Assembly: GCF_014653435.1 (NCBI RefSeq)
Contig: NZ_BNAO01000001.1
Coordinates: 507,739-531,738, forward strand
Origin: Alishewanella longhuensis
Lineage (GTDB): Bacteria; Pseudomonadota; Gammaproteobacteria; Enterobacterales; Alteromonadaceae
Length of the DNA: 24,000 nucleotides
Reading direction: 5' to 3'
The notes below the pieces were generated by a model. It was not told the DNA's origin, made no database searches, and saw nothing but the letters and a program-made list of their open reading frames with translations. The translations under genes and the position numbers were made by a program. Numbering within the stretch: position 1 is the first letter of the stretch; the number at the start of each line of letters is the position of its first letter. This document shows positions 3,218 through 22,864 of the stretch, piece after piece.

Positions 3218-3583
3218 ATGAAGCAAACATCACTTACCAAAATGCTACTCGCAGGCATTGCAATAGCAAGCATCACTGGTGTCGTGCATGCTGCGCCCAA
3301 CAGTCAGCTAACTCTTGCTGAGGGGGCGCCGGAGTCCGCGCGGCAAGATTTTAAAAAATGGACGGCTGGTGAGCGTGTCATAGGGCGTAGAGATAAATGT
3401 TATGGCATTGCACTTGCAGGTCAAAATGATTGTCGCGCTGGTGCGGGCACAAGTTGCGAGGGCTCCTCCACTATCGATTTTCAGGGTAATGCTTGGACTT
3501 TCACGCCACGTGGTCTGTGCGAGCATTTGATTACACCACATGGGCCGGGAGCTAAAACTGAACTGGCGCGGAATAATCCCTAA
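3218..3583 (+). CDS. bufA: DUF2282-family Sec-exported Cys-rich RiPP precursor (bufferin BufA-like)
   Basis: GAGG lies 8 nt upstream of ATG 3218. The signal peptide [25 protein letters not shown]|AP is followed by [44 protein letters not shown]. The four conserved Cys are codons 61, 72, 80 and 101, starting at nt 3398, 3431, 3455 and 3518. The stop overlaps the next gene start (TAATG). Confidence 0.85.
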
Positions 3584-4455
3584 TGACAGACTTTAATGCG
3601 TGTGCCATTACCTCTATGTCACTGGGTTGCGGCATTAGTCTGAAAATGCTGCATTACCCAGCAGTATTAGAGTTGATGGACGAGGCATTATGGTTTGAAG
3701 TTCATACCGAAAACTATTGTGGTATCGGCGGTACGAAAATCGCTGCGCTGCGCGATGTTGCTGAGCGTTACCCAGTTAGCTTTCACGGTGTTGGCGCCTC
3801 GCTTGGGGGGCCTTCTCCGCTTTGCCAAACTCATCTGTCTCAGGTTAAACGGCTGGTTAAACAATTTAATCCTGCTCTTGTATCAGAGCATGCGGTTTGG
3901 TCGCGTCTGGAACAAAGCTACTTTGCCGATTTGTTACCTCTACCTAGATGTAGTCAGATTTTTCGAAATCTGGCCTCAGGTATTCAACAATATCAGGAGT
4001 GTATTCAGCGCCCAATCCTGATTGAAAATCCGACACATTATCTGAGTATGCGGCATGAGATGACAGAACCTGATTGGTTAATCGAATTGTGCAGGTTTAC
4101 AGGCTGCGGTGTGTTGCTGGATATTACCAATTTATTTCTAAGCGAAGTTAACTGCGGAATTAATGCCAGGGCTTACATTGATGCCATGCCCGCTTCGTTA
4201 ATCGGCGAGCTGCACATCGCTGGTTACTCGGTTGATCCGATTGAGGGTAACGCTTTGCTGATTGATAGCCATGATCATGCCCCGCAGCCAGAAGTATTAC
4301 AATTGCTGGCTTACGCATTGCGGCGCTTCGGTACTAGACCGGTGTTATTGGAGTGGGACGACAAAATCCCAACCTTAACTGAGCTGTTAGTACAGCGGAG
4401 AAAAATTGCAGCGCTTGTTAAGAGCGAAACACAAGAGAATCGTGCTGATGCGTGA
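3583..4455 (+). CDS. bufB: DUF692 / MNIO (multinuclear non-heme iron oxidase) family enzyme, BufB/MbnB-like
   Basis: 290 aa with DUF692 hallmark blocks: WFEVHTENY, FHGVGASLGG, VSEHAVW, LLPLP, ILIENP, LLDITNL, ELHIAGY, IDSHDH, LLEWD. It is translationally coupled on both sides. Confidence 0.9.
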   Translation: MTDFNACAITSMSLGCGISLKMLHYPAVLELMDEALWFEVHTENYCGIGGTKIAALRDVAERYPVSFHGVGASLGGPSPLCQTHLSQVKRLVKQFNPALVSEHAVWSRLEQSYFADLLPLPRCSQIFRNLASGIQQYQECIQRPILIENPTHYLSMRHEMTEPDWLIELCRFTGCGVLLDITNLFLSEVNCGINARAYIDAMPASLIGELHIAGYSVDPIEGNALLIDSHDHAPQPEVLQLLAYALRRFGTRPVLLEWDDKIPTLTELLVQRRKIAALVKSETQENRADA

Positions 4456-5224
4456 TTACTACACAGCCTTTGCGGATTTTTTGCAGCAGCAGAATGCTGC
4501 TGTATTGCAGCCCTGGTTGGCCTGTGCACCCGAGCAGGTTAGGCGGTTGCTGGTTTATCGTAACAGCAGCCTTAAGTCGTGTACGCAAGCACTGATAGCC
4601 AACTTCCCCATCAGCTGCACTTTACTCACGCAAGATGTCTTTCTGCCACTGGCAAGAGCCTTTGTGCTGCGGTGTCGACCAGTTAACACGGGTTTAGCCT
4701 GGTACGGGCAAGATTTCGCTGATTGGCTTGCTAGCAACCAAATAGTCCAATCTTATCCGTGGCTGCCTGATCTGGCAAAGCTGGAACGTGCCTGGCTAAA
4801 TAGTTTACTGGCTGTCGATGCAGAGCCGATAACCCCGGAACAACTGATCTCAAAAGCAGATGCAGGAGTCTCGCTTGAAACCCTACACCTTGGTTTGCAT
4901 CCCTCCGCCCAGCTACTTCAGGTTGAACACGATGTATGGCCTGTATTGTTGGCCGCGCGAGAACATCCACAACAAGTCCAACAAGTTGGAGTGTATGCAG
5001 CGAGGTTGAATTTACTGCTTTGGCGAGATCCTTCTTTTAACATCAGATGCCAGCTGGTTTATCCAGCTGAGTATGTCTTTTTGACAGCGCTGTTACAGCA
5101 TGGCACTTCGCTAGATTTGGCATGCAGCGCAGCAACCCGCGTTGATAAAAACTTGGACATTAGCCATTGGTTTGCTTTTTTGCTTGGCTCTGATCTTTTA
5201 ATTCCAGCTAATTCAGAGGAATAG
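4448..5224 (+). CDS. bufC: DUF2063-family partner protein (BufC-like)
   Basis: The ORF opens at 4406. ATG 4448 (MRDYYTAFADFLQQQ...) forms an ATGCGTGA stop/start overlap with the MNIO gene, and that N-terminus is typical of DUF2063. The length and position immediately after DUF692 match the conserved pairing. Confidence 0.75.
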   Translation: MRDYYTAFADFLQQQNAAVLQPWLACAPEQVRRLLVYRNSSLKSCTQALIANFPISCTLLTQDVFLPLARAFVLRCRPVNTGLAWYGQDFADWLASNQIVQSYPWLPDLAKLERAWLNSLLAVDAEPITPEQLISKADAGVSLETLHLGLHPSAQLLQVEHDVWPVLLAAREHPQQVQQVGVYAARLNLLLWRDPSFNIRCQLVYPAEYVFLTALLQHGTSLDLACSAATRVDKNLDISHWFAFLLGSDLLIPANSEE

Positions 5225-5227
5225 TAT

Positions 5228-5758
5228 ATGAGTTGGTACATGAATGTGCAAAGCAGGTATCTAACAATCTCTGGCTTGATACAGCGTTGGTTGGAGCCGC
5301 TGGTATTACTCTCGGCTCGTCTATTGATTGCGAAAGTGTTTTTATACTCTGGGCTGTCGAAATGGCAAGGCTTTCTGCAGTTCGACAGTAATAAGTATGA
5401 TCTTTTTTTATATGAGTTTTTTTGTCCGGAAACGATCCGGCCAGGAGCCTTGGTACTCTGTGATTCGGAAACTATGGAATATGCCCAGGGGGCTTTTGGC
5501 CAGCAGTTGGCGGAGCTATTGGCATTCTCTGCAGGGATCTTGGAGGTTTTTTTGCCGATATTGCTGGTTATCGGGCTACTCAGTCGTATTAGTGCGCTTG
5601 GTTTATTAACGATGACGTTGTTCATCCAATTAGCGGTATACCCCGATTGGGCGCATTTCTGGAATCCGGCTGCATGGTGGCTTGTCGTGCTAATGCTCCT
5701 AATGGTGCGTGGACCTGGATCATTATCTATAGACCGGCTTTTGAGATTGGAGCGTTAG
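5228..5758 (+). CDS. bufD: DoxX-family membrane protein (BufD-like)
   Basis: GAGGAA (5215-5220) precedes ATG 5228. The protein has 4 predicted TM segments and the DoxX-type block LLIAKVFLYSGLSKW. It starts 3 nt after the DUF2063 stop. Confidence 0.8.
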   Translation: MSWYMNVQSRYLTISGLIQRWLEPLVLLSARLLIAKVFLYSGLSKWQGFLQFDSNKYDLFLYEFFCPETIRPGALVLCDSETMEYAQGAFGQQLAELLAFSAGILEVFLPILLVIGLLSRISALGLLTMTLFIQLAVYPDWAHFWNPAAWWLVVLMLLMVRGPGSLSIDRLLRLER

Positions 5759-5765
5759 TTAATCT

Positions 5766-6686
5766 TTAGGAGTGTATTAGTCGGAAGTCACCAGGTGAAG
5801 TGCCGTGTTGTTGTTTAAAGAAGCGGATAAAGGCGGTGGCGGATTGATAACCGACTTGTTCGGCGATGCGATCTAAGCTTTGTTCGGTATGAATCAGTAA
5901 GTAACAGCTTTTTTGCAGCCGCAATTGGTCTAACAACGATTTCGCCGTCATTCCCATGATTTTATTGCAGCGCTCGGCAAAAGCACTTTTTGATAAATAG
6001 GCCAGCTCAGCCATATTATCCACAGTCCAATTGGCTTCTGGTTTATCCATCACGGCCAATACTACGCGTCTTAATGCCGTATCTTGCAATGCTGCCAGCA
6101 GCCCTTGGCTGATGTGTTCATCGGTAAGTACCTGGCGGAGTAAGTGCAATACAACGACATCACTTAAACGACTGATCGCGGCTTGGTAGCCCGGCTGACG
6201 CAGAATGGTTTCTTCCTGGATAAGTGCGACAAGGGGCGCTAAACGGCTCGATTGTCGATCTGCAGGTAAGTGAATATAGTCGGGCATAATTTGTAATACG
6301 TTCGCGGTTAATGGGGACTGAATGGCAATGTCGTAGCACACTAAGCCGCGTTCAATATGTTCAGGAACGCAGAAGTTTTGCAATTTAACCGGCGTGCTTT
6401 GCGCAGTAACCGGTTGGTCGCTAAGCCAATGGCGAAGGCCATGGCTAAAAAAGATCGCATCACCGGCACGCAGTTGTATCTGCTCGGAAAGGCGTCCAGG
6501 GATTGCCATCCATAAACTGCCTTGCGTCACAATATGTAGAGCAGCCTTATCAGATTTATCACTTAGCAAATTCCAATTATCGCAAAAGCCTGATTCAAAG
6601 TGCAGCGCCGATCCAAATGCCAGCTGAGCCAACAGCTGATCTAATGCTTCCGGTGTTTCGGTTGATAAGGGCGTTGTTTTGGTCAT
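5766..6686 (-). CDS. AraC-family transcriptional regulator (N-terminal cupin-like sensor plus C-terminal dual HTH)
   Basis: 306 aa. The C-terminus, WTVDNMAELAYLSKSAFAERCNKIMGMTAKSLLDQLRLQKSCYLL...IAEQVGYQSATAFIRFFKQQHGTSPGDFR, is a canonical AraC HTH pair. The N-terminal HFESGFCDNW...AGDAIFFSHGLRHWL looks cupin-like. Confidence 0.9.
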   Translation of the reverse strand: MTKTTPLSTETPEALDQLLAQLAFGSALHFESGFCDNWNLLSDKSDKAALHIVTQGSLWMAIPGRLSEQIQLRAGDAIFFSHGLRHWLSDQPVTAQSTPVKLQNFCVPEHIERGLVCYDIAIQSPLTANVLQIMPDYIHLPADRQSSRLAPLVALIQEETILRQPGYQAAISRLSDVVVLHLLRQVLTDEHISQGLLAALQDTALRRVVLAVMDKPEANWTVDNMAELAYLSKSAFAERCNKIMGMTAKSLLDQLRLQKSCYLLIHTEQSLDRIAEQVGYQSATAFIRFFKQQHGTSPGDFRLIHS

Positions 6687-6732
6687 TGTGCGTTGTTGCC
6701 TGTCTTCCTACACTGCATCAACTAGTTAGTCT

Positions 6733-6754
6733 AAGGTTTGTGCAAGGTTTTGCA
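6733..6754. promoter_or_regulatory. Tandem direct repeat AAGGTTTGTGC / AAGGTTT-TGC in the araC-divergent intergenic region
   Basis: Read directly from the sequence: 6733-6743 AAGGTTTGTGC is followed immediately by 6744-6753 AAGGTTTTGC. It sits 25-45 nt upstream of ATG 6779. AraC-family sites are commonly direct repeats. Confidence 0.3.
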
Positions 6755-6778
6755 AAGCTAAAATATCAAAGGTGTGTA

Positions 6779-7228
6779 ATGACTCAAATTCTGCTGGCCC
6801 GCCCCCATCCTTTTATTGTGTCTGAAATGGTGCCATTTCTGCAGCAAAATAAAATACAAGCGCAAAAGCTGGAACAGCTCTCCGAGTTGGATACTAAGCT
6901 TAATCAAAGCAAAGCTGCAGTTATTTCGTTGGCCCTTTCATCGCCACTAGCTGCTACAGCAGAAGAGGTGTTAGCGGCAATAAAGCAGCGCGCACCCAGG
7001 ATGCCACTTGTATTTGCCAGTATGCTTCCACTAGAGCGTGTGCAAAAGCAGCTGCTGCAAATACTACAGCCGTACTTTAACTCACCTGTGCTTTTAGCGG
7101 TGGATACCAGAGTAGGTGTTGCTGAGCCTACTTCAACTAATACAGTGCTTTACTTTAGTAAAGCTGATTTAGCTGATATGCAAAAGCGTAATACCTTTGC
7201 GAAGTTACTGCATGGGCATGCACGCTAG
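6779..7228 (+). CDS. Hypothetical protein (149 aa), first gene of the HD-GYP/aminolipid block
   Basis: The supplied ORF (6503-7228) overlaps the araC-family gene on the opposite strand by 184 nt. The internal ATG 6779 (MTQILLARPHPFIV...) lies just after AGGTG and removes that overlap. I recognise no family. Alternating beta/alpha-like segments suggest a small alpha/beta fold. Confidence 0.55.
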   Translation: MTQILLARPHPFIVSEMVPFLQQNKIQAQKLEQLSELDTKLNQSKAAVISLALSSPLAATAEEVLAAIKQRAPRMPLVFASMLPLERVQKQLLQILQPYFNSPVLLAVDTRVGVAEPTSTNTVLYFSKADLADMQKRNTFAKLLHGHAR

Positions 7229-7256: not shown

Positions 7257-8183
7257 ATGCTTAACTGGTTTCAACGGCAGAAGTATATTGTGCCAACTAC
7301 AGTTGATGCTAACCAACTGAGTAAGGAGTTATTAGCAAGTTTAATGGTAATGGCCTGGTTTGTTGAAGCTAAAGACCCTTATACCGGCGGGCATTTATGG
7401 CGGGTGTCGCGATACGCTAACTTATTGGCGCTAGCAGGTGGCTTACCTGAAGTCGATGTAGCAAGAATTACCCTTGGCGCTTTCTTGCATGATTTAGGCA
7501 AGGTTGCGGTGCCAGACGCTATATTGGGGAAAACGACTAAATTGACTGAAGAGGAATTTGCGGTAATTAAAACCCATCCAGAGGCTGGAGGGCGTTTATT
7601 GGCTGGGCATCCGTTGGGCCACTTGGTGTTGCCTGCTGTTGAATTGCACCACGAGCGTCCTGACGGGAAAGGTTACCCCTATGGTTTAACCGCCGGCATG
7701 ATTCCGATAGATGCGGCTATTGTTGGTATTTGTGATGCCTTTGATGCCATGACAAGTTTACGACCATATCGTAAACCGCTGCCCTTAGCTGAGGTTGTTG
7801 CTATTTTAGCGGAGGGCGCAGGAAGTCAGTTTAATCCATTTTGGGTTGGTCGCTTTATTGAGCTGGTAGAGCAAGATCACTTTGCGAATATTATGGGGCA
7901 TACCGATGATGGTATTCCGCTGCATACCTGCCCGCATTGTGGTCCTACTGTGCAGCAACAACGGCATCAACATGCTGGTGATTTGCTGGCATGTGGTCTG
8001 TGCCATAGTGAGATGCAGTTAGTGGAAAAGCAGGAGCAGCTTACCGTAACCGTAACGGGTAAGAAAGCTGCGGCACATTTATTACAACCACAGGCTGACA
8101 ATAGGTTAATTAAAGCGGTGATTGAAGCCTCGTTAGCGCAAATTCCTATTTCTCAACTCGTAAGGTTTACTGCTCATGCGTGA
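7257..8183 (+). CDS. HD-GYP domain c-di-GMP phosphodiesterase with C-terminal CxxC-N17-CxxC zinc-ribbon-like tail
   Basis: GAGGAA SD. Motifs present: HDLGK, THPEAG, HHERPDGKGYPYGL (HHE plus GYP) and CDAFDAMTS. CPHC is at 7929-7940 and CGLC at 7992-8003. There is no REC or other N-terminal sensor domain. Confidence 0.9.
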   Translation: MLNWFQRQKYIVPTTVDANQLSKELLASLMVMAWFVEAKDPYTGGHLWRVSRYANLLALAGGLPEVDVARITLGAFLHDLGKVAVPDAILGKTTKLTEEEFAVIKTHPEAGGRLLAGHPLGHLVLPAVELHHERPDGKGYPYGLTAGMIPIDAAIVGICDAFDAMTSLRPYRKPLPLAEVVAILAEGAGSQFNPFWVGRFIELVEQDHFANIMGHTDDGIPLHTCPHCGPTVQQQRHQHAGDLLACGLCHSEMQLVEKQEQLTVTVTGKKAAAHLLQPQADNRLIKAVIEASLAQIPISQLVRFTAHA

Positions 8184-8400
8184 TCTGTTCCGTGCTTTAG
8201 CTAGACTGCAAATTATTTTAGCTGCAATAAAGGTGTCGTTAGTAGTGGGCACACTACTGAATATCATTAACCAATATGAAGCCATATTTGCAGAGCAGCC
8301 ATGGCGCTGGGGATTGGCATTAATGAATTATCTAGTGCCTTATGCGGTGTCGTCCTATAGCGGTGCACTACAACTAATCAAAAGGACTGATCGATGCTAA
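8176..8400 (+). CDS. Small two-TM membrane protein, NrtS-like (putative nitrate/nitrite transporter family)
   Basis: 74 aa. KVSLVVGTLLNIINQ...NYLVPYAVSSYSG resembles the NrtS family signature as I recall it (VVGT.LN.INQ ... VPY.VS.YS). It has an ATGCGTGA overlap with the HD-GYP stop and an ATGCTAA overlap with the next gene. Confidence 0.55.
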   Translation: MRDLFRALARLQIILAAIKVSLVVGTLLNIINQYEAIFAEQPWRWGLALMNYLVPYAVSSYSGALQLIKRTDRC

Positions 8401-8891
8401 AGCCTATCCTCGCAGAAAACCGTCGGCAATTAGCCTTTATTGATACTATCTTGCGGCAGATAAATGCTGCGGATTACCAACGTGAGTTTACTTTTGCAGG
8501 TGCGCCAAGTATTGGTAAGCATATTCGGCATGTGCTTGGGCATTATGCGCAATTACAACAGGCTATAAGTACCGGGGAAGTGGATTATCGGCAGCGGGAG
8601 CGAGACAGGTTGGTTCAAGCTAATCCCTTGGCGGCACTGGGCTTGTTGCAGCAGCAGCTGGATTGGCTGGATAGCTTGGCGCAGCAAATTATTGATCCTA
8701 ATTTGCGCTATCAATGTGCTGAAGGTGAAGGGACAACAAGTTTATTACGTGAGCTGGATTTTGTTGCCAGTCACGCAGTGCATCACCTGGCGTTATTGAA
8801 AATTTTGTTGCAGCAGCTTGGTTATAACTTGCCAGACACGGCAGGTGTTCATAGTTCTACCTTAGCGTATCTCAAGCCATGTGCACCTTAA
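8394..8891 (+). CDS. DinB-family (DinB_2-like four-helix bundle, metal-binding His triad) protein
   Basis: 165 aa. HIRHVLGHY near the N-terminus and ASHAVHHLALL near the C-terminus match the DinB/YfiT-type His triad. It overlaps the upstream gene by 7 nt and the downstream gene by 13 nt. Confidence 0.7.
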   Translation: MLKPILAENRRQLAFIDTILRQINAADYQREFTFAGAPSIGKHIRHVLGHYAQLQQAISTGEVDYRQRERDRLVQANPLAALGLLQQQLDWLDSLAQQIIDPNLRYQCAEGEGTTSLLRELDFVASHAVHHLALLKILLQQLGYNLPDTAGVHSSTLAYLKPCAP

Positions 8892-10489
8892 GTTGGCAGT
8901 ATCAAGCGGACGGCTTGCACTTATTGTTTAACCGTGACGAGCAATTAACTCGACCTATTGCGTTAATGCCAGAAGTTGTTACTGACAATGGGGTTACTGC
9001 AATTATGCCGATAGATCCGCAAGGCAGCGGTACGTGGCTGGCAGTCAATGAACGGGGGCAAGTGTGGTGTCTGTTAAATGATTATGCGGCGGCGACCAGC
9101 ACAATAGCAGTTTCTGCTATTAGCCGTGGTTTACTGGTTAAGCAATTGGCACATTGTCGCAATCGCCAACAGCAAGATGCGTTACTGCAGCAGGATAAAC
9201 TGCAGGGTTATGCTCCCTTTAACTTGTTGTTATTTACTAATTTGCAAGAACCAGAGCAATGGTATTGGGATGGTCAGCAGTTAAAACAGTATTTTGCAGT
9301 GCGTTCGCCAGTTTCCAGTTCTGGTCGTTGGCCCAAGCTAATACCTGCTTTAAGGCGCTGGTATTGGCGTATTAAGGTATCTGACTCAACCACTGCAGAG
9401 CAATTATTACATTTGCAGCGTACTGCTAAACCATTAAATAGCTTTATGGGCATTGCTATGCAGCGGGCAACCACGCAAACCGTTAGTACCAGCTATTTGC
9501 ATTTGCATAGGCATGGTGTCACCTTTAAATACTGGGATGGGCATCCCCGCGAGCAGGGAAAACAAGCGAATAGCGAAACCGCTTTATCCTGGTCGCAACC
9601 ATGTGAATCAAGCTACAGTGGTTTTCAACCGCTGCTTTTACCAGCTGTACTGGCAAAAACGTTACCCCAAGTGGCTGCCAAGCTGCCAAGATGGCAAATG
9701 CGATGTGTGCAGCATTGTTTGGCCGAGCGGCGACTCAACAGCGCATTGCAGCAGCTGAGCTTGCTGCCGGATCAGCATTTTTGTGACGGTGCTTTGCAAT
9801 ATCTAGGGATAACGCCGCAGGTTATTGCCTGTCGTTGGCCTGCTGCGCAAAGCCGCCCCGTGTTTATTTGTAATCACCCAACAGGGGGGCTAGATGGTTT
9901 GTTGCTGATCGCGTTGTTGCAAAAGCGTTATCCAGATCTGCAAGTAATTGCCAATAATGTGTTACTGGCTGTAGCACCCTTGGCACCTTTTCTGGTACCG
10001 GTGCCAGTTTTTGCGAAATCAGCAACGGCTATTCCACTGTTGGTTGAGGCTTTTGCCTCTGAGCAGCCACTATTAATTTTCCCAGCCGGTAGAACCGGGC
10101 GGTTAAATGCTCAGCAGCAAGTTGATGACGGGGTCTGGGCCAGATTAGCGGTAAGCCTTAGCCGCCGCTCTCAGCGTGCACTTACCTTGCTGCATATTGA
10201 TAGCCGAAACTCTCGGCTTTTTTATGCTCTGGCTGCACTTAGAAAATGGCTGCGCATAGATGTAAACCTGGAAATGTTGTTACTTAGCCGTGAAATGCTT
10301 AATCCAGCAATAAAACAGCCGAAAATTTTTGTCGATATTCCTATGCATCAGATAGAGCTGGAAGCACTGGCCGATACTGATTGGCAACGTGCACAACGTT
10401 TAAAACAACGCGGCATGCAGTTGCCTGCCATTTATAAGGAGCAGCAAGATGCAGCAGGCTACACCTCTTGCGGTCGAAGTACCCGCTGA
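8879..10489 (+). CDS. Fusion protein: N-terminal NRDE (TANGO2/DUF833-like) domain plus C-terminal PlsC-type (HX4D) acyltransferase
   Basis: Single uninterrupted 536-aa ORF. The N-terminus reads MCTLSW...LLFNRDE (Cys2 at 8882, NRDE at 8930-8941), then GSGTWLAVNERG, LLNDY, SRGLLV and YAPFNLLLF, all NRDE-family blocks. The C-terminus has FICNHPTGGLDG (HX4D at 9875-9892) and LIFPAGRTG, the lysophospholipid/OlsA-like acyltransferase motifs. Confidence 0.8.
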   Translation: MCTLSWQYQADGLHLLFNRDEQLTRPIALMPEVVTDNGVTAIMPIDPQGSGTWLAVNERGQVWCLLNDYAAATSTIAVSAISRGLLVKQLAHCRNRQQQDALLQQDKLQGYAPFNLLLFTNLQEPEQWYWDGQQLKQYFAVRSPVSSSGRWPKLIPALRRWYWRIKVSDSTTAEQLLHLQRTAKPLNSFMGIAMQRATTQTVSTSYLHLHRHGVTFKYWDGHPREQGKQANSETALSWSQPCESSYSGFQPLLLPAVLAKTLPQVAAKLPRWQMRCVQHCLAERRLNSALQQLSLLPDQHFCDGALQYLGITPQVIACRWPAAQSRPVFICNHPTGGLDGLLLIALLQKRYPDLQVIANNVLLAVAPLAPFLVPVPVFAKSATAIPLLVEAFASEQPLLIFPAGRTGRLNAQQQVDDGVWARLAVSLSRRSQRALTLLHIDSRNSRLFYALAALRKWLRIDVNLEMLLLSREMLNPAIKQPKIFVDIPMHQIELEALADTDWQRAQRLKQRGMQLPAIYKEQQDAAGYTSCGRSTR

Positions 10490-11351
10490 ATTAATTCAGG
10501 CGGAGTTACAGCAGTTAAAGCCGCTGGCTAATTTCCGGGGACTACAAATTTTTAGCGCCGATGCACATGATATTCCACATACTATGCAGCAAATTGGTCT
10601 GATCCGTGAGGCAGTTTTTCGGCAAGCCGGTGCGGGGCGTAATTTGCCACGTGATCTAGACGAACTTGATTATGCTGAACCGGCTTATCAGCAACTGGTT
10701 GTATGGGACCCGCAGCGTTTGCAGCTAGTAGCATTGTATCGTTATCAATTAGGCTGGCTCGCTGCACGGTATGGCCAGCAAATTTTGCGTACTAGCCAAC
10801 TATTTCGTTACAGCAAGGCTTTTACCGAGCAAGTATTGCCCTATGGCATAGAGCTGGGGCGCTCGGTGGTTAATCCTGCTGCTAAAGCCAGCAGCTTAGG
10901 ATTTTTTGCGCTATGGCTTGGATTGGGTGCCTTGTTGGTGCGTCATCCACAGCTGCAATATTTTTTTGGCAACGTAACGCTTTACCCGCAACTTGGCCAG
11001 GCTGCCATGCAGTTGATTGTACAGTTTTGTCAGCAGCTTTATTCGCCCCCTTCGCCGATGTTGCAAGCCAAGCCTGAACTTAGCTATAAAGCAACGGTGT
11101 TAACGATTGATGAGACAGTTCGGCAAGCCAGTGCTGCACAACGCGTTAAACATTTACAGGAAAGGCTTAAACCTTTGGCATGCCGTATTCCACCTGTGCT
11201 GCAGTCTTATCTCAGTGTGGGCAATGCTATCTGGTTTGATGATGCTGCACTGGATCACGACTTTGGCGGTGCTTATGAACAAAGTATCATAGTGCCATTG
11301 GCAGCCTTAAGTATTAGCTTTCGACAACGTTTTCTTGATTGTCATCTTTAA
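10449..11351 (+). CDS. OlsB-like GNAT-fold N-acyltransferase (aminolipid / putative-hemolysin COG family)
   Basis: AAGGAG (10436-10441) lies 7 nt before ATG 10449. The 300-aa protein has IREAVFRQAGAGRNLPRDLDELDYAEPAYQQLVVWD...LVALYRY and GIELGRSVVNP, typical of the lyso-ornithine-lipid synthase type N-acyl amino acid synthases. It overlaps the upstream acyltransferase ORF by 41 nt out of frame. Confidence 0.75.
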   Translation: MQQATPLAVEVPAELIQAELQQLKPLANFRGLQIFSADAHDIPHTMQQIGLIREAVFRQAGAGRNLPRDLDELDYAEPAYQQLVVWDPQRLQLVALYRYQLGWLAARYGQQILRTSQLFRYSKAFTEQVLPYGIELGRSVVNPAAKASSLGFFALWLGLGALLVRHPQLQYFFGNVTLYPQLGQAAMQLIVQFCQQLYSPPSPMLQAKPELSYKATVLTIDETVRQASAAQRVKHLQERLKPLACRIPPVLQSYLSVGNAIWFDDAALDHDFGGAYEQSIIVPLAALSISFRQRFLDCHL

Positions 11352-11364
11352 TGGAGATTTCTTT

Positions 11365-11901
11365 ATGCAACACTTCCCAATACTTGAACTTTCATCCGCA
11401 CCGGCTGATAGCCAACCTTTACTCGAAGCCTCACTAAAAAATAGTGGTCGTATTCCTAACTTATTTGCCGTAATGGCCGCAGCCCCCGGTTTATTAGCAG
11501 GGTATCAGGAGTTGCATCAGTTGGTGATGCAAAATAGTTTTAACGCCACCGAAAAAACGGTGGTTTGGCAAACCATTAATCAGGAGCATGGGTGCCATTA
11601 CTGTGTGCCTGCGCACTCGGCTATAGCGGCTATGCTGAAAGTCGACCCTGCCATTGACCAGGCGCTACGACAACAGCAAGCATTACCTGAGCCACTGAAT
11701 GCCCTGCGTCATTTCACATTATTAATGGTACGTCAGCGAGGTCAGGTAAGTGAAGATGATGTGGAAACTTTTCTGGCGGCTGGTTATCAACCCAGGCAGG
11801 TACTGGAGATTATCCAAATGCTGGCACAAAAGGTGATGAGCAATTATACCAATCATCTGGCGAAAACGCCGTTGGATGACATGTTTAAAGTATTTGTTTG
11901 A
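11365..11901 (+). CDS. Carboxymuconolactone decarboxylase / AhpD-like family protein (CxxC)
   Basis: ATG 11365 lies 8 nt after GGAG (11353-11356) and is preferred over the ORF opening at 11335. EHGCHYCVPAHS is the AhpD-core CxxC(H) motif. The protein is about 178 aa. Confidence 0.75.
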   Translation: MQHFPILELSSAPADSQPLLEASLKNSGRIPNLFAVMAAAPGLLAGYQELHQLVMQNSFNATEKTVVWQTINQEHGCHYCVPAHSAIAAMLKVDPAIDQALRQQQALPEPLNALRHFTLLMVRQRGQVSEDDVETFLAAGYQPRQVLEIIQMLAQKVMSNYTNHLAKTPLDDMFKVFV

Positions 11902-11937
11902 TCGATATGGTCCAATGTTGAGATTTAAGCCGATACA

Positions 11938-11968
11938 GTTTAGCAGCCAGCTTTTGCTGTCTGCTAAA
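11938..11968 (+). terminator. Stem-loop downstream of the AhpD-like gene (possible operon terminator)
   Basis: TTTAGCAGCCAGC (11938-11951), loop TTTT, then GCTGTCTGCTAAA (11956-11968). The stem is 13 bp with one mismatch. No U-tract follows, so the call is tentative. A 300-nt AT-rich spacer lies downstream. Confidence 0.4.
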
Positions 11969-12267
11969 CCCACAACTAACAGCTACAAGTCATAGCCATT
12001 TTATAGCTTGTATAAATTAGCCATCAGCTACCTACTTTGCACAACGTAAGAGTGCTGATTAATCAAAAGTAAAGTTTGATTTAGCGCAAGCGTTCTTCAA
12101 ATAAAAACAGCGATTAAATTTATGTTGTTGTTTTTTATTTATTTTATTCTTTTTCTCTTGGTGGCAATTAACCCTTTTGGGTATTGACTGTGTTGGTTGC
12201 TCACTATATAACCATGTTTAAATTGTGGTTTATCCGCCAATTATACAAATACCATGCAGGGAGCCGC

Positions 12268-13851
12268 ATGCAAAAAAATATGCCTGTTACCGGACAAGAA
12301 CAAGCTGTGCCTGAGCAGGCTAATATCTTGTCTACTACCGATTTACAAGGCCGCATCAAATACGTGAATGATAGCTTTGTGCAGATTAGTGGTTTTAGCA
12401 AAGCAGAATTATTAGCGCAGAATCATAATATTGTGCGGCATCCTGATATGCCGCCGGAAGTGTTTCGGCAGTTCTGGCAGCGGCTAAAAAAGGGTAGCCC
12501 TTGGATGGGCATTGTGAAAAACCGCTGCAAAAATGGCGATCATTATTGGGTAAACGCCTACGTCACGCCGATTAGCCATCAGGGAAAAATAACAGAATAC
12601 CAATCGGTGCGCCGCAAAGCTGAGCCGGTACAAGTTGCCAGAGCAGAGCAACTTTATCAGGCGATAGCGCAAAAAAAATCTTTGCGCCAATTAAAGCCAG
12701 GTTGGTCGTTTTCCTCTAAGTTGTTGCTGTTAACCATACTGCCAGTATTGAGTGGTGTGCTACTTGGACATTGGATAGCCTTACCTTATGCAAGCTTGTT
12801 ATTGCCATTAATCGGATTACTGTTAGCCGTCATGTTAAGTAGGCAGTTGCTGAAACCATTGCAACAGCTTTGCCGACAAAGTCGCAGTATTAGCCAAGAT
12901 GCGGTTGCGCGTTATGTTTATACCGGGCGTAATGATGATATCGGTCAGTTAATGTTGGCATTCCGCTGCCTGGAAGCCGAAACGGCTGGAGTGGTTGGGC
13001 GGGTGGCTGATTCGGCGAACTCATTGGCTGCTGGTATTGGCCAGTTAACCGGCTCGGTAAGTGCTTCAAGGCAGGAAATTCATGCCCAGTTTGCTGAAAC
13101 CGAGCAGATAGCCGCGGCTATTAATCAGTTAGCTACTAGCGTTCAGGATGTAGCTGGCAGCGCCCGCTCTTCGTCAGAGGCTGCGGATAGTGCCTATAAT
13201 CAGGCGCAAAGTGGCAAGGGGGTCGTTGATGTCAGTTTGCTGGCAGCTAAACAGTTGCAACAAGAGCTGACCGCGGCGCAACAAGACGTGCTTAAAGTTG
13301 CCGCGAGTAGCGAAGATATTCTGCAAATTTTAGATATTATTGGTGCCATCGCTGAGCAAACGAACTTACTGGCATTAAATGCTGCTATTGAAGCAGCTAG
13401 GGCCGGAGAAGCCGGGCGTGGTTTTGCTGTTGTTGCCGATGAAGTAAGGTCTTTGGCAACCCGCACGCAAGCCGCTACGGGCAATATTCAACAAAAAATT
13501 TCTCGTTTACAGCAAGATACCACTGCTGCTGTTGCTGCCTTAACACAAAGTAATGCGGGGGCCGAACGTTGTGCCACTACCAGTGCTCATACTGCACAGG
13601 TTCTGGAGCAAGTGTTAGCGGCAGTAAAGAGTATTACTGAACAAAATCAGCAAATTGCGGCGGCGGTTGAACAGCAAAGCCAGGTTGCGGAAGAGGTTAG
13701 TAAAAATATTACCAGTATTCGTGATTTAGCCGAGCGTAGCTTACTAAGCGCCGATATGACAGTGTCAGCAAGCGATGAGATGCATGGTATTACTCAGGGC
13801 TTTGATGCGCTAACCAGGCAGTTTTGGTCCAGGCAGCAGGTTAGGGTGTAG
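12268..13851 (+). CDS. aer: Aer-like aerotaxis/energy-taxis receptor (N-terminal PAS, TM hairpin, HAMP, MCP signalling domain)
   Basis: ATG 12268 follows AGGGAG (12257-12262). The ORF opening at 12184 is a TTG extension. The N-terminus closely parallels E. coli Aer: [22 protein letters not shown]...[54 protein letters not shown] hairpin follows ([16 protein letters not shown]...[14 protein letters not shown]), then the conserved MCP core [37 protein letters not shown]. Confidence 0.9.
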
Positions 13852-13853
13852 TT

Positions 13854-15962
13854 ATGCTAGTTGAATGTCAGCACGATCTAAAACAACTGCTTAATTTGTT
13901 TTCGGCTAATGTACCGGGGTTCTTCTTTCAATTGCTTCGGGCAGCCTCAGGGCAATACAAGCTATTACTGGTTTCTGACAACGCCGAGCAGGCACTGGGT
14001 ATACCGATTTGCTCTTTGTCTGAACAGGCTAAATTGGCGTTGTCGCGGGTGCATGCTGACGATCAGGCCGCGCTGCAGCAAAGCTTAGCGTACTCGGCTC
14101 AGCACATCTCTCCCTGGAGTCTGCAATTTCGGTACTTACACCCTGCTGGTGGCCAACGTTGGTTTGAAGGGCATGCTACGCCCACACAACATGAAGAGCA
14201 CAGTTTGTTATGGCATGGCTATATCAATGATATTACGCCGATCAAATTGAATGAATTGGCCTTGGCCGAGTATGCCAGTCAGCATCGCGAGATTGTTGAT
14301 AATATCCTTGATGCTATTATCACTATTGATGAGCATGGCATTATAGAAACCTTTAGTAAGGCCGCCAGTCGCATTTTTGGCTATCAAGCTGCAGAAGTTA
14401 TTGGTGAGAATGTTGCGCTATTAATGCCAGAGCCATATAGCAGTACTCATAATCACTATATGCAAAACTATCGCCAAACGGGTGAAGCCAAAATTATTGG
14501 GAAAAGTCGGGAAACTCAGGGGCTACGCAAGGATGGGCGCCTGTTTAATATGGAGCTGCGGATTGCCCGCATCCAACAAGCTGATCGTTATAAATTTATT
14601 GGTATGGTGCGCGATTTATCAGAGCGTAAGCGTACCGAAGTATTAATTGAAAAGCTGGCCTTTTATGATCCCCTTACGCAATTACCCAACAGACGCTTGC
14701 TAAAACAACGTTTAACCGCCGCTTTGCAAGAGTGTAAGCTGCAAAAAGGGCTGGGGGCTTTGTTGTATATAGATTTAGATAATTTTAAGCACTTAAATGA
14801 TTCTTTAGGGCATGGCATCGGCGATCAGTTGCTGCGCCAGGTTGCCAGCCGTTTGCAGCAAAGTGTGCGCCAGCAAGATACGGTGGCAAGGCTAGGTGGT
14901 GACGAGTTTATTATTTTACTACTCAACCTGTCATCTGAGCAGCAAACGGCGGTGCAACAAGCTGAAACCGTTGCTGAAAAGGTGCGGGTGGCGCTCAATA
15001 CGCCTTTTACGCTGGAACAGCTGAGTTATGTAAGCAGCCCGAGTATCGGCATTACGCTGTTTTCTGATGATAATAATTCTATAGACGAGTTATTGCAGCA
15101 GGCAGATTTAGCCATGTATCAAGCCAAAGCTGCTGGTAAAAATCAAACGCATTTGTTTGACGTGGCCATGCAGATAAAGGCATCGGCTCGAACTCAATTA
15201 GAGAGTGAGTTGCGTCAGGCCATTACTAAACAACAATTGCAATTGTACTTTCAGGGGCTGCATGATCAACATGGTCATTTAGTTGGCGCCGAAGTCTTGC
15301 TACGCTGGTTTCATCCTGAGCTTGGCTCTGTAAGCCCTGCGGTCTTTATCCCTATCGCAGAAGAGAGTGGTCTTATTTTTGAGATCGGTAGTTGGGTAAT
15401 AGAGCAAGCCTGCCAGCAATTAGCGCAGTGGCTTGAGCGAGCTCCTGACTTGCAGTTAAAATTGTCTATTAATATCAGTGCACGGCAATTCCATCAGGAC
15501 GGTTTTTTACCGCAGGTGCTACGCACGCTAGAGCGTTTTAACAAAGTCCGTCAGGCACTGCAATTTGAATTAACCGAAAGCATCTTGGTCTCCCGGGTTG
15601 AGGAGGTGGTAACCAAGATGAATGTCCTAAGAAATTATGGCATTGCTTTTGCGCTAGATGATTTTGGTACGGGCTACTCGTCACTCAGTTATTTAAAGCG
15701 CTTGCCTTTAGCCTTGCTGAAAATAGATAGAAGTTTTATTGATGACATCTTGCATGATCCAAACGATGCCGCTATCGCCAGTACCGTTATAGCGCTGTCA
15801 AAAGCGCTGGGGTTAGATGTGATTGCCGAAGGAGTAGAAACCCTGGCCCAGCGCAATGCCCTGGCCGAGCTGGGTTGCTATTTCTACCAGGGTTATTACT
15901 TTAGCAAGCCATTACCTGCCAGCGAGTTTATGCAGCTACACTGTCCCGAGCTGGCGCATTAA
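13854..15962 (+). CDS. PAS-PAS-GGDEF-EAL c-di-GMP turnover protein
   Basis: Starts 2 nt after the aer-like stop. It has two PAS-like regions; the second reads IVDNILDAIITIDEHGIIETFSKAASRIFGY. The GGDEF domain has RQQD (an I-site RxxD 5 residues before the motif) and RLGGDEF. The EAL domain has EVLLRW, DDFGTGYSSLSYL, KIDRSFI, AEGVET and QGYYFSKP. Confidence 0.9.
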   Translation: MLVECQHDLKQLLNLFSANVPGFFFQLLRAASGQYKLLLVSDNAEQALGIPICSLSEQAKLALSRVHADDQAALQQSLAYSAQHISPWSLQFRYLHPAGGQRWFEGHATPTQHEEHSLLWHGYINDITPIKLNELALAEYASQHREIVDNILDAIITIDEHGIIETFSKAASRIFGYQAAEVIGENVALLMPEPYSSTHNHYMQNYRQTGEAKIIGKSRETQGLRKDGRLFNMELRIARIQQADRYKFIGMVRDLSERKRTEVLIEKLAFYDPLTQLPNRRLLKQRLTAALQECKLQKGLGALLYIDLDNFKHLNDSLGHGIGDQLLRQVASRLQQSVRQQDTVARLGGDEFIILLLNLSSEQQTAVQQAETVAEKVRVALNTPFTLEQLSYVSSPSIGITLFSDDNNSIDELLQQADLAMYQAKAAGKNQTHLFDVAMQIKASARTQLESELRQAITKQQLQLYFQGLHDQHGHLVGAEVLLRWFHPELGSVSPAVFIPIAEESGLIFEIGSWVIEQACQQLAQWLERAPDLQLKLSINISARQFHQDGFLPQVLRTLERFNKVRQALQFELTESILVSRVEEVVTKMNVLRNYGIAFALDDFGTGYSSLSYLKRLPLALLKIDRSFIDDILHDPNDAAIASTVIALSKALGLDVIAEGVETLAQRNALAELGCYFYQGYYFSKPLPASEFMQLHCPELAH

Positions 15963-15980
15963 CCTAAGCGGTGCGTTAAA

Positions 15981-17318
15981 TTACGCTTTTAATACTGCAA
16001 TATTACGCCCGGCTTTTTTCGCGGCGTACAAGGCTTCATCGGCTCTTTTTAGGAGTTGCATAGGAGTTTCGCCTTTTTGTTTGATGCAGCAACCCAGGCT
16101 GATTGTAACGTTAACAGTTTTCTCAGCCGCACCGCTACCGCGCTGGGTTTTACCGGTATCGGCTTGGTTGGGGCGATCGGGTTTACGTATCACTAGCGGA
16201 TATTCGGCCACGGCTAACCTGACTTCTTCGAGCTTTTCTTGCAGTAGCTCAGGATTATTATGGCTAAAAACCAACGTAAACTCTTCGCCACCGTAGCGGT
16301 AAGCCTTTAACCCCTTAATGCTATTCAATATACTACCTAATAGTTTTAGTACCTGATCACCCACATCATGGCCATAGGTATCGTTAAACTTTTTGAAGTG
16401 ATCAACATCCAGCATACATACCGCACTCTTGCGTCCTAAACGATTTAAATGCGATAGCAAAGCCCGCCGCTGTGGTAGTTGCGTTAACTCATCAATATAA
16501 GCCAAATGCAGCATTTGAAAGGCGAGCGTGAGTAAGATAGCTAGAGTCGCCGCGACTATACTCCAGCCTGCAAATTCGGGTTTATAACTTACCTCCATGC
16601 CAATTATAGTGGCCAGCCATATTGCAAACTGCCCCCACTGTGCCGGATTGCGCATTTTGACATTAATAATAATGAGCCAGATCCCAGCGATAATTAGTAA
16701 AAACCATGCATGTAACCAGGTTAAACCTTGGCATCCTGGCAAGTGTTGCAATACTACTGAGGGTAATTGGGCTTTTGCTAACCAGACATTAAGCGGTAAA
16801 GCCACGCCCAAAAATAACAATGCCGGACCACTGAGTAACAGCAATATGCCGGCTGGCTTGCTCAGCAATGGTTTGGGGATTACTGCCAGCAGTAACATAG
16901 TGACGGCGGTTAACAGCGGAAGTACGGCAAGCTGAGTAATCTGTCCCTCTGCCATATTGCCCGTTACCGCACTATTAGCGGCACTGCTGAATTGCAGAGC
17001 CGCAAAATAGCTTGCTAAAAGCGCTAACCAATACAGCCAATCGGTTTGCCGCATTAATGCCGCTAATAAAGCTATGGTGGCCAATGCCAGATAGGCTGTT
17101 TCAGGAAAGGGGAGTATATAAAATACCGGTAGGTCGGGATAAAAGCACACTGCAATGAGAAGAAGTAACAGCGGAGATAGAATAATAAGTGGCACAATTA
17201 CCTCGGTGTGGCTGCAAGTGAGTTTGAAATGGCTTGCCAGAGCGCAGAATAGTGTAACAGTAACGAGCAGGCAAGTGTTTGCCAATCCCCGCCGTTTATC
17301 GCCAACCACGTTAAACAC
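15981..17318 (-). CDS. Integral-membrane diguanylate cyclase (multi-TM N-terminal domain plus GGDEF)
   Basis: About 280 aa of TM helices are followed by DELTQLPQRRAL...MLDVDHFKKFNDTYGHDVGDQVL...YRYGGEEFTLVF...ADEALYAAKKAGRN. There is no RxxD I-site before GGEEF. The ORF opens at a GTG (17318-17316), so the true start is uncertain. Confidence 0.85.
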   Translation of the reverse strand: MFNVVGDKRRGLANTCLLVTVTLFCALASHFKLTCSHTEVIVPLIILSPLLLLLIAVCFYPDLPVFYILPFPETAYLALATIALLAALMRQTDWLYWLALLASYFAALQFSSAANSAVTGNMAEGQITQLAVLPLLTAVTMLLLAVIPKPLLSKPAGILLLLSGPALLFLGVALPLNVWLAKAQLPSVVLQHLPGCQGLTWLHAWFLLIIAGIWLIIINVKMRNPAQWGQFAIWLATIIGMEVSYKPEFAGWSIVAATLAILLTLAFQMLHLAYIDELTQLPQRRALLSHLNRLGRKSAVCMLDVDHFKKFNDTYGHDVGDQVLKLLGSILNSIKGLKAYRYGGEEFTLVFSHNNPELLQEKLEEVRLAVAEYPLVIRKPDRPNQADTGKTQRGSGAAEKTVNVTISLGCCIKQKGETPMQLLKRADEALYAAKKAGRNIAVLKA

Positions 17319-22512: not shown

Positions 22513-22855
22513 TGCCACTATTCTTGACTTGGACGTGCTGACCGCGATGTATGGTGACAGTAGTGAAGAGACGATAGTGTTTGCGCTAACGGGGTTTTAT
22601 CTGGCGGCTTCCGGCTACATGCAAGATATTCAACAGGCGATGAAAGCGAGTAATCTGACTGCTTTAGCGATTGCAGCGCATAGTTTAAAAGGTATCTGTG
22701 GTTTAGTGGGGGCGAAACCCATGGCGGGACTCAGTAATCAGTTAGAGCACGCGGCACGTAGCGGTGATACTGAACAATTACAGAAAGCATTGCTAATGCT
22801 GCCAGAGAGCTGGCAGCTACTACAACAGCAGTTAAAGTTAGTATTAAAGCAATAA
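22484..22855 (+). CDS. Hpt (histidine phosphotransfer) domain protein
   Basis: AAHSLKGICGLVGA contains the canonical HSLKG phospho-His motif (His66 when counted from ATG 22484). The protein looks like a four-helix bundle of appropriate size. The start is either 22484 or 22493, and both overlap the preceding gene. Confidence 0.8.
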   Translation: MAVMINLPDDATILDLDVLTAMYGDSSEETIVFALTGFYLAASGYMQDIQQAMKASNLTALAIAAHSLKGICGLVGAKPMAGLSNQLEHAARSGDTEQLQKALLMLPESWQLLQQQLKLVLKQ

Positions 22856-22864
22856 GGAGAGTCC

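Follow-up and report, generated by a model that had tools for sequence, protein, structure and literature searches.

Which step does an NRDE/TANGO2-family domain serve when it forms one half of a bacterial lipid acyltransferase? The question is raised by a stretch of 24,000 nucleotides from Alishewanella longhuensis, here called the window, in which positions 8879 to 10489 of the forward strand are read as a single frame of 536 codons. TANGO2 deficiency is a severe human metabolic disease. The function of TANGO2 is disputed, and a heme chaperone, an acyl-coenzyme A (acyl-CoA) binder and a hydrolase with an N-terminal nucleophile cysteine (Cys-Ntn) have all been proposed; the crystal structures of 2025-2026 provide the fold but no substrate (PMC13044924, PMC12359130). 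The open reading frame (ORF) found here is, with little room for doubt, the middle gene of a tight operon with the order DinB-like protein, NRDE/TANGO2::Acyltransf_2 fusion, GlsB/OlsB-type N-acyltransferase. Its parts are as follows.

8394..8891, + strand: DinB-like four-helix-bundle protein, 165 aa (Pfam DinB and DinB_2)
8879..10489, + strand: whole fusion ORF, 536 aa, NRDE/TANGO2 domain, linker and Acyltransf_2 O-acyltransferase (hidden Markov models, alignments, AlphaFold2)
8879..9589, + strand: NRDE/TANGO2-family Cys-Ntn domain, residues 1-237 (PF05742, alignment, Foldseek)
8882-8884, + strand: Cys2 codon, within the NRDE domain
8930-8941, + strand: N18-R19-D20-E21, within the NRDE domain
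9590..9646, + strand: linker, residues 238-256, poorly conserved (alignment; coil in the model)
9647..10408, + strand: Acyltransf_2 (GlsA / OlsF-N type) lyso-aminolipid O-acyltransferase domain, residues 257-510, function predicted (PF19576)
9875-9895, + strand: H333-x5-D339
10079-10099, + strand: FPAGRTG
10449..11351, + strand: GlsB/OlsB-type N-acyltransferase, 300 aa, predicted first aminolipid step (PF13444)

A preliminary description of this DNA, made from its letters, had reported one uninterrupted 536-codon ORF with an NRDE domain in front of an acyltransferase. The listing of ORFs agrees with this, and each of the quoted motifs was located at defined residues: M1-C2, FNRDE (17-21), GTWLAV (51-56), SRGLLV (82-87) and PFNLLLF (113-119) in the N-terminal half, NHPTGGLDG (with H333 and D339) and FPAGRTG (401-407) in the C-terminal half. 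The protein starts with MCTLSW. Support from a Pfam model for the NRDE assignment, which had been proposed as a check, was found for residues 1-181 (PF05742, TANGO2; E 2.6e-15, 57.7 bits, cut-off 22.6). Residues 257-498 match PF19576 (Acyltransf_2; E 2.2e-34, 119 bits, cut-off 27). The original labels of the C-terminal half, PlsC-type and HX4D, have to be corrected. The PlsC model PF01553 reaches only 16.9 bits, under its cut-off of 23, and the catalytic spacing is H333-P-T-G-G-L-D339, i.e., H-x5-D and not the canonical H-x4-D. The His...Asp block and the FPxGxT block (F401-P-A-G-R-T406) are both present and invariant across the family, the invariant acyltransferase residues of the alignments being H333, P334, G336, D339, G340, G404, T406 and R408. 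In NCBIfam, this half scores 154 bits against GlsA (equivalog cut-off 260) and 118 bits against the N-half of OlsF (cut-off 620), and is therefore a homologue, not an equivalog, of GlsA/OlsF. Its fold matches the squash (plant) glycerol-3-phosphate acyltransferase 1K30 at a Foldseek E value of 2e-5, which is a superfamily-level likeness. The AlphaFold2 model of the whole fusion has a mean predicted local distance difference test (pLDDT) of 87.5 and a predicted template modelling (pTM) score of 0.88, with the linker as coil.

The NRDE/TANGO2 domain is complete. It aligns over its full length to stand-alone members of 235-265 aa, and the strands of the model run to residue 237. Residues 1-256 were searched against 1.84 billion representative proteins (E <= 1e-3), which yielded 3259 relatives. 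Most of the best 150 are stand-alone proteins of 230-265 aa, whose alignment begins at the first residue, extends to roughly residue 230 and shows 31-42% identity; long, fused proteins of 525-605 aa number about 19 among the 150. The NRDE match begins at residue 1 in 19 of 19 long proteins and, with few exceptions, in the stand-alone ones, as required of an N-terminal-nucleophile enzyme. A Cys that follows Met is a substrate for Met removal, and in the fusion, too, the nucleophile domain stands at the N-terminus, never behind another domain. When 15 long proteins were aligned with the window protein, C2, R19, D20, E21, H333, D339, G404 and T406 were kept in all of them. Fused and stand-alone members alike show little or no variation at Cys2, R19-D20-E21, R25 and R83-G84, and two unusually long NRDE members were verified with Pfam.

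The closest structural matches of the fusion model in Foldseek are human TANGO2 structures (9BWA and 8SV7; E 4e-10 to 4e-9, target-normalised TM score 0.55-0.65). They are followed by CV2077, acyl-CoA:isopenicillin N acyltransferase (2X1D), bile-salt hydrolases and acid ceramidase, so that the closest solved fold beyond TANGO2 and CV2077 is that of an acyl-CoA-dependent acyltransferase. A profile of the N-domain and its stand-alone relatives aligns to 8SV7 at E 2.9e-5 and places N18-R19-D20-E21, R25 and R83-G84 opposite human N25-R26-D27-E28, R32 and R88-G89. In the human protein C2, R26-D27-E28, R32 and R88-G89 form the proposed catalytic centre and the anion-binding site beside the Cys2 nucleophile (PMC13044924, PMC12359130). 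Human N157 and K166 probably correspond to S148 and R159 of the fusion protein, judged from the motif spacing. A search of PDB sequences with the full-length family profile gave no match, and the N-domain alone found human TANGO2 only at E 0.58. The N-terminal half thus has a score above the gathering cut-off, a complete domain, the Met-Cys2 start with the NRDE motif, and the alpha-beta-beta-alpha Ntn fold, i.e., the marks of the NRDE/TANGO2 family.

The fusion is found in at least 21 species genomes from two phyla, Gammaproteobacteria and Balneolota, comprising isolates as well as metagenome-assembled genomes (MAGs), which supplies the taxonomic spread that the preliminary description had wanted recorded. 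The count stems from a scan of species-representative genomes with patterns drawn from the acyltransferase half, the matches extending from residue 1, and is therefore a lower bound. All 21 fused loci open with MCT(L/I)(S/T)W. The same two-domain layout of 523-546 aa occurs in Alishewanella, Alkalimonas, Arsukibacterium, Aliidiomarina, Salinispirillum and Natronospirillum; further hosts are MAGs labelled Rheinheimera, Bacterioplanes and Saccharospirillum and three Balneolales/Cyclonatronaceae MAGs. An assembly or annotation artefact that joins two genes, a concern raised at the outset, has become a practically negligible explanation, since the same frame recurs in independent assemblies of 21 species, isolates included. 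One apparent unfused relative or fission product, the 343-aa 'hypothetical protein' P0014, turned out to be a truncated call; the real ORF of this Aliidiomarina MAG (L004, 4663-6273) encodes 536 aa.

Both halves of the fusion are under purifying selection. In comparisons of the window gene with its closest orthologues, the ratio of nonsynonymous to synonymous substitution rates (dN/dS) amounts to 0.13 over residues 1-237 and to 0.10 over residues 257-510; these values are approximate, because dS is near 1 in the ortholog pairs. The identity of the linker drops to 12-37% in distant orthologues. In a neighbour-joining tree, which is crude, unrooted and without bootstrap, all 31 fused N-domains fall on one side together with 8 of the 70 stand-alone ones. 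The tree agrees with a single fusion event, or a small number of them, within one NRDE subclade; a single origin is only roughly supported. Judging from genus names, we take most fusion hosts to be alkaliphiles or soda-lake organisms, and these names suggest possible horizontal spread within the habitat. Nearly all hosts of fused or DinB-linked split synthases (L005-L034) bear names of the alkaline or soda-lake type, examples being Alkalimonas, Natronospirillum, Cyclonatronaceae, Alkalispirochaeta, Arsukibacterium and Wenzhouxiangella.

The neighbours of the fusion gene indicate which pathway it belongs to. The downstream gene had already been described as an OlsB-like N-acyltransferase, in agreement with its PF13444 match and its NCBIfam scores of 195 bits for GlsB and 156 bits for the C-half of OlsF, both under the cut-off. 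It lies directly downstream of the acyltransferase at every related locus. In the window the two ORFs overlap out of frame by 41 nt (10449-10489), an arrangement that would fit translational coupling or the splitting of an OlsF-like ancestor by an old frameshift. In two-step aminolipid synthesis GlsB, OlsB or the C-half of OlsF N-acylates an amino acid with a 3-hydroxy fatty acid to a lyso-aminolipid (PMC12971839). GlsA, OlsA or the N-half of OlsF then esterifies the 3-hydroxyl group to an acyloxyacyl aminolipid, e.g., of the ornithine- or glycine-lipid type (PMC12971839). By homology, the operon is a putative two-step aminolipid synthase of this kind with two probable accessory parts.

One of these parts, the DinB-like protein encoded directly upstream of the NRDE unit as its obligate partner, had gone unnoticed in the preliminary description. 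Its ORF overlaps the start of the fusion by 13 nt. When the window proteins were mapped on the related loci, the order DinB-like protein, fusion, N-acyltransferase was found in all gammaproteobacterial loci, and in Balneolota a small unannotated ORF 5' of the fusion is a homologue of the DinB-like protein (BLASTP E 1e-11). G41-x-H43-x-R45-H46, R68, R70, R119-E120 and H127-x-x-H130-H131 are invariant in this family. The AlphaFold2 model (pLDDT 91) has a fold nearest to YfiT, DinB and mycothiol-dependent maleylpyruvate isomerase, and the family profile gave no sequence-level match among PDB chains. The DinB-like protein 3QTH of Colwellia 34H, which is among the fold matches, was rejected as the partner, because a profile containing the Colwellia partner does not match it; it is a different DinB paralogue. 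Characterised members of the DinB/YfiT fold class are metal-dependent, thiol-using enzymes.

The same pairing is seen with NRDE genes that are not fused. The closest stand-alone NRDE genes occur in marine Gammaproteobacteria, and in 6 of 6 contexts inspected a DinB-like gene lies immediately 5' of NRDE. In three of the six (Grimontia, Marinomonas, a MAG) the cluster further contains genes for a bifunctional OlsF-type protein (PF19576 and PF13444), a VTT/DedA-family member, an ATP-grasp-like protein (~375 aa) and a YHS-domain protein. A metagenome scan added 80 further stand-alone NRDE loci. Among the 71 with at least 500 nt of upstream sequence, DinB is located directly 5' of NRDE in 70. The wider surroundings were compared where the sequence reaches at least 5 kb upstream and at least 4 kb downstream, which holds for 32 loci (long loci). 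An OlsF-type synthase is part of the cluster in 19 of them (type A), in the order VTT, ATP-grasp, DinB, NRDE, YHS, a 150-aa unknown protein and OlsF, or in the variant VTT, ATP-grasp, OlsF, DinB, NRDE. VTT and ATP-grasp genes with no synthase within reach were found in four loci, and one locus has none of these neighbour sets. In total, OlsF and/or the VTT and ATP-grasp set accompanies the pair in 23/32 long loci. The type-A arrangement may be a cluster, so far not described, that makes a modified aminolipid. A second arrangement, type B, has the order YHS, a 167-aa unknown protein, two ATP-grasp-like genes, a 399-aa unknown protein, DinB and NRDE; one of its ATP-grasp-like genes is cyanophycin-synthetase-like, and its 167-aa protein is homologous to the 150-aa protein of type A.

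The 6-7-gene type-A cluster was seen at L044, L053, L059, L062, L066, L068, L069, L079, L081, L084, L103 and L108, and further at L114, L119, L120, L038, L039 and L042; its YHS gene belongs to a (seleno)protein family. Type-B loci are L040 (Colwellia psychrerythraea 34H), L041, L047-L051, L061, L072-L074, L086, L087, L101 and L104.

With the type-A OlsFs the two acyltransferases of the window share 25-32% identity, and an unrelated Aeromonas OlsF is at least as close to them; their nearest relatives are split enzymes of other soda-lake taxa. A derivation of the fused synthase from the type-A OlsF cluster by deletion is therefore unsupported. Since the synthase lineage of the window differs from the type-A OlsFs, DinB-NRDE is associated with two aminolipid-synthase lineages. 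The link of the TANGO2 family to lipid acylation rests on the fusion and on gene neighbourhood, across both of these lineages. The finding holds up and reaches further than the preliminary description supposed.

The NRDE domain and its DinB-like partner are probably accessory components of the aminolipid pathway, as the fusion and the neighbourhood suggest. In a mechanism which is consistent with the conserved residues, Met1 would be removed by methionine aminopeptidase, Cys being a small second residue, and Cys2 would be exposed as the N-terminal nucleophile of a pocket lined by R19-D20-E21, R25 and R83. The NRDE domain could then capture a fatty-acyl donor, either an acyl-CoA or an acyl carrier protein (ACP) thioester, possibly held transiently as S-acyl-Cys2 in the manner of acyl-CoA:isopenicillin N acyltransferase. 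From there the acyl group would be presented to the fused O-acyltransferase at its H333/D339 site, for esterification of the lyso-aminolipid produced by the downstream N-acyltransferase. The predicted metal-binding DinB-like protein may aid the thiol chemistry at CoA, at the ACP phosphopantetheine or at Cys2. The NRDE domain would improve or gate the second acylation step and would not be strictly required for it. Capture of the acyl donor by Cys2 and its delivery to the fused enzyme is a tentative proposal that may well be wrong. A broader proposal, which we hold more tentatively again, is that the DinB-like protein and NRDE/TANGO2 together serve bacterial acyloxyacyl-aminolipid synthases as a dedicated, hitherto undescribed accessory module, and that the ancestral task of TANGO2 might have been Cys2-dependent handling of fatty-acyl groups at lyso-lipid acylation.

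Published data on both sides of the fusion bear on this proposal. The acyl donors of OlsF are undetermined in published work (PMC12971839). Human TANGO2 binds C16:0- and C18:1-CoA, whereas a mutant with NRDE changed to AGAA does not, and TANGO2 alone has no lysophospholipid acyltransferase activity (PMC11867700). Upon loss of TANGO2, lysophosphatidic acid increases and phosphatidic acid decreases (PMC10042531). A fusion that links the family to lipid acylation fits both the acyl-CoA binding and the rise in lysophospholipids (PMC11867700, PMC10042531). If the ancestral acyl handling proposed above is true, it would explain the build-up of lysophospholipids in human TANGO2 deficiency.

A number of observations weigh against a direct part of the NRDE domain in acyl transfer. 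Eight of the 32 long loci are of type B, with ATP-grasp ligases present and no synthase within reach, and the company of ATP-grasp enzymes in this type fits amide chemistry as well as thioester chemistry. Characterised OlsF and GlsA/GlsB need no NRDE or DinB protein to form their lipids in E. coli, so that the NRDE domain is not essential (PMC12971839). The choice of the fusion partner may be positional, since an Ntn domain needs a free N-terminus and the O-acyltransferase half of OlsF is the nearest one downstream in type A. The well-characterised Cys-Ntn relatives all cleave or form N-acyl amides and do not perform O-acylation, and with an identity of only ~15% a transfer of function from the human protein is risky. 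In addition, the domain can decay. The fused N-domain of a Natronospirillum MAG (L025, 4833-6326) starts with VDALTWQ and has no NRDE motif, that of the metagenomic protein P0023 retains Cys2 without NRDE, and that of a second metagenomic protein, P0021, starts with MPSLSWQ and has no Cys2; these three appear to be pseudo-enzyme remnants. NRDE is absent, with DinB and the synthase kept, in Natronospirillum operosum, P0024 and Wenzhouxiangella.

The variants also show how the operon is built. In N. operosum (L026, 4410-5870) and P0024 a DinB_2::Acyltransf_2 fusion of ~490 aa replaces the NRDE::acyltransferase; it is a second, independent fusion that links the DinB-like protein to the same acyltransferase. 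Wenzhouxiangella has DinB together with an unfused acyltransferase and the N-acyltransferase, and several Spirochaeta and Alkalispirochaeta MAGs have the two acyltransferases alone. Since the acyltransferases are kept where NRDE and DinB vary, the two acyltransferases make up the core; DinB and NRDE are accessory parts, and of these NRDE is prone to decay in some lineages. The initial interpretation stands in part. Its central claim, that the fusion ties the NRDE family to lipid acylation, is strengthened by a conserved fusion under selection and, independently, by the OlsF clusters; the type-B pairs without synthase and the decay or loss of the N-domain are caveats to the more conjectural role in acyl-thioester binding, delivery or hydrolysis.

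Several other explanations of the domain were weighed. In the foremost of them, Cys2 might attack an amide bond, either of the lyso-aminolipid or of the finished aminolipid, and the domain would then be an N-acyl amide hydrolase or transamidase that edits wrong products, exchanges the head group or recycles the lipid. In the larger marine clusters, amino acids attached to the head group by the ATP-grasp ligase would be removed or exchanged by NRDE. This reading draws on analogy to the fold neighbours after TANGO2 and CV2077, which are Cys-Ntn enzymes acting on N-acyl amides including glycine conjugates (PMC13044924, PMC12359130). An N-acyl amino acid of just this kind is what the adjacent GlsB-type enzyme would make, ATP-grasp amide ligases accompany DinB-NRDE in both cluster types, and R25 and R83 could bind the head-group carboxylate. 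However, no protein of the TANGO2 family has a reported amidase activity, the reduced operon of the window is without an ATP-grasp ligase, and unless there is regulation it would seem pointless for a synthase to be fused to an enzyme that hydrolyses the intermediate it needs. The human data favour acyl-CoA binding (PMC11867700), and on the whole we consider an amidase unlikely. A chaperone for heme trafficking, fused to a lipid enzyme by chance, could be imagined after the report that a bacterial TANGO2 homologue, HtpA of Shewanella, binds heme and aids cytochrome c maturation (PMC10470608). This is very hard to credit here, because heme or cytochrome-maturation genes do not recur as neighbours in the over 100 loci examined, human TANGO2 was found to bind heme nonspecifically in a crystallographic study (PMC13044924) and the heme role is disputed (PMC12782551).

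DinB-NRDE could also be an independent module for thiol, metal or redox chemistry, or for making or processing small peptides, which is only co-regulated with membrane remodelling; the fusion would then have arisen by a deletion between adjacent genes without catalytic coupling. Type-B clusters without a synthase would be expected in this case, as would the decay or loss of the N-domain in some lineages. The neighbours also include genes of the YHS (seleno)protein family, DoxX and AhpD-like genes, and solved DinB-fold relatives include thiol S-transferases. The module is nevertheless tied to two synthase lineages and in most long loci to OlsF and/or the VTT and ATP-grasp set, DinB has been fused independently to the same acyltransferase, and in different phyla the fusion is maintained by purifying selection that matches the selection on the acyltransferase in strength, which together make mere co-regulation improbable. 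The pTM score of the whole-fusion model also suggests a fixed interface between the halves, as far as a predicted structure may indicate. Should the N-domain be mainly non-catalytic, i.e., a structural, membrane-docking or regulatory lipid-sensing module for the acyltransferase, the degenerate N-domains of L025, P0021 and P0023, which still stand in frame without Cys2 and/or NRDE, would be accounted for. The invariance of C2, R19, D20, E21, R25 and R83 in most members is unexpected for a scaffold, and renders a purely non-catalytic role highly unlikely.

An accessory part in aminolipid acylation, the reading preferred here, can be set against known systems. Human TANGO2 (PF05742; 8SV7, 9BWA) belongs to the same Pfam family, is the best structural match and shares the Met-Cys2 start and the NRDE motif. 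It binds acyl-CoA via NRDE, and its loss raises lysophospholipids, which concerns the type of step carried out by the acyltransferase partner of the fusion. In contrast to the window domain, which is covalently joined to an acyltransferase, it is a distant (~15% identity) stand-alone mitochondrial protein with no DinB partner. HtpA of Shewanella oneidensis (SO0126) is the only studied bacterial TANGO2 homologue, a cytoplasmic NRDE-family protein from a related order. It differs in being reported to act in heme trafficking, and its paper is silent on acyltransferases, DinB and lipid genes (PMC10470608). GlsA/GlsB (glycine lipid of Bacteroides) and OlsF (ornithine/lysine lipid of Serratia, Vibrio and Flavobacterium) are homologous to the C-half and the downstream gene as O- and N-acyltransferase, and OlsF has them in the same order. 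The window proteins differ from these synthases by scores below the equivalog cut-offs and by the additional N-terminal NRDE domain and DinB partner. The fusion is not an OlsF, as its O- and N-acyltransferases are encoded on two ORFs in different frames.

With the Cys-Ntn enzymes isopenicillin N acyltransferase, bile-salt hydrolase/penicillin V acylase, N-acylethanolamine acid amidase and acid ceramidase the identity is 9-15%. Most of them expose the Cys by autoproteolysis, whereas the putative route in the fusion is removal of Met1. Class II glutamine amidotransferases such as asparagine synthetase B follow the same logic, with an N-terminal Cys2 Ntn domain before a synthetase to which an intermediate is handed over; they differ in the Ntn family, in the partner domain and in the intermediate, which is ammonia. 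The metal-dependent thiol S-transferases of the YfiT/BstA/DinB superfamily resemble the DinB partner in the four-helix bundle with conserved His, but are only 12-17% identical to it. To our knowledge, an obligate pairing with NRDE has not been described for this superfamily.

No mention of the fusion, of DinB or of a link to aminolipid genes was found in the TANGO2 structure papers (PMC13044924, PMC12359130), the acyl-CoA-binding paper (PMC11867700) or the HtpA paper (PMC10470608). The 2024 and 2026 aminolipid reviews (including PMC12971839) do not mention NRDE or the DinB partner either, and a literature keyword search found no paper linking the TANGO2 family to aminolipid synthases. The literature searched also gave no usable polar-lipid reports for Alishewanella, Alkalimonas or Arsukibacterium. 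The sequences themselves are already catalogued under the public names 'NRDE family protein' or 'hypothetical protein', and the window protein is 100% identical to a database hypothetical protein of A. longhuensis. The impression that the architecture is undescribed thus holds for the literature searched and not for the sequence databases. What appears to be new is the addition of a TANGO2-family domain and of a DinB-like partner to a predicted aminolipid synthase of a known kind. The joining of NRDE to a lyso-lipid O-acyltransferase and the conserved synthase neighbourhood favour a lipid-acylation reading of TANGO2, and the three-gene bacterial system makes the biochemistry of the family directly and cheaply testable. 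Aminolipid pathways would gain two unrecognised components, NRDE and the DinB-like protein, and the larger VTT/DedA, ATP-grasp and YHS cluster is flagged as one that may make modified aminolipids.

Further genes in the neighbourhood of the operon are listed below.

11335..11901, + strand: AhpD/CMD-like 'peroxidase-related' protein, possible fourth operon gene, not core (TIGR01926, 49.7 bits, below cut-off)
5766..6686, - strand: AraC-family regulator, divergent, Cupin_6 and HTH_18 (Pfam, synteny)
7257..8183, + strand: HD_5 (HD-GYP-type) protein (Pfam, synteny)

The AhpD/CMD-like gene lies directly downstream of the operon only in Alishewanella agri (L006) and is located elsewhere in Arsukibacterium (L008). 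The AraC regulator is syntenic with the operon in the group of Alishewanella, Alkalimonas, Arsukibacterium and Aliidiomarina, and in many of these genomes the HD_5 gene, too, keeps its place just 5' of the gene for the DinB-like protein. A scan for promoters and terminators over positions 7900-12300 gave no signal above shuffled controls. Between the AraC and HD_5 genes, a 241-aa ORF without Pfam match (6503-7228) overlaps the AraC gene with its 5' end on the opposite strand. Since only its last ~150 residues are conserved (Alkalimonas, Arsukibacterium), the true start is probably near 6776. Just left of the AraC regulator, positions 3218-5758 encode DUF2282, an MbnB/TglH/ChrH-family protein (PF05114), DUF2063 and DoxX, which resembles a HvfA/B/C-type cluster. 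This DUF2282-PF05114-DUF2063-DoxX set, or DoxX alone, is also found upstream in Aliidiomarina (L004) and on the metagenome contig L037. The window is rich in signalling genes (267-1079, 7257-8183, 12184-17318 and 21538-23221), among them HDOD, HD-GYP-type HD_5, a PAS-MCP chemoreceptor, PAS-GGDEF-EAL, GGDEF, response regulators and an Hpt protein. In Salinispirillum (L003), a GGDEF-EAL gene also follows the operon.

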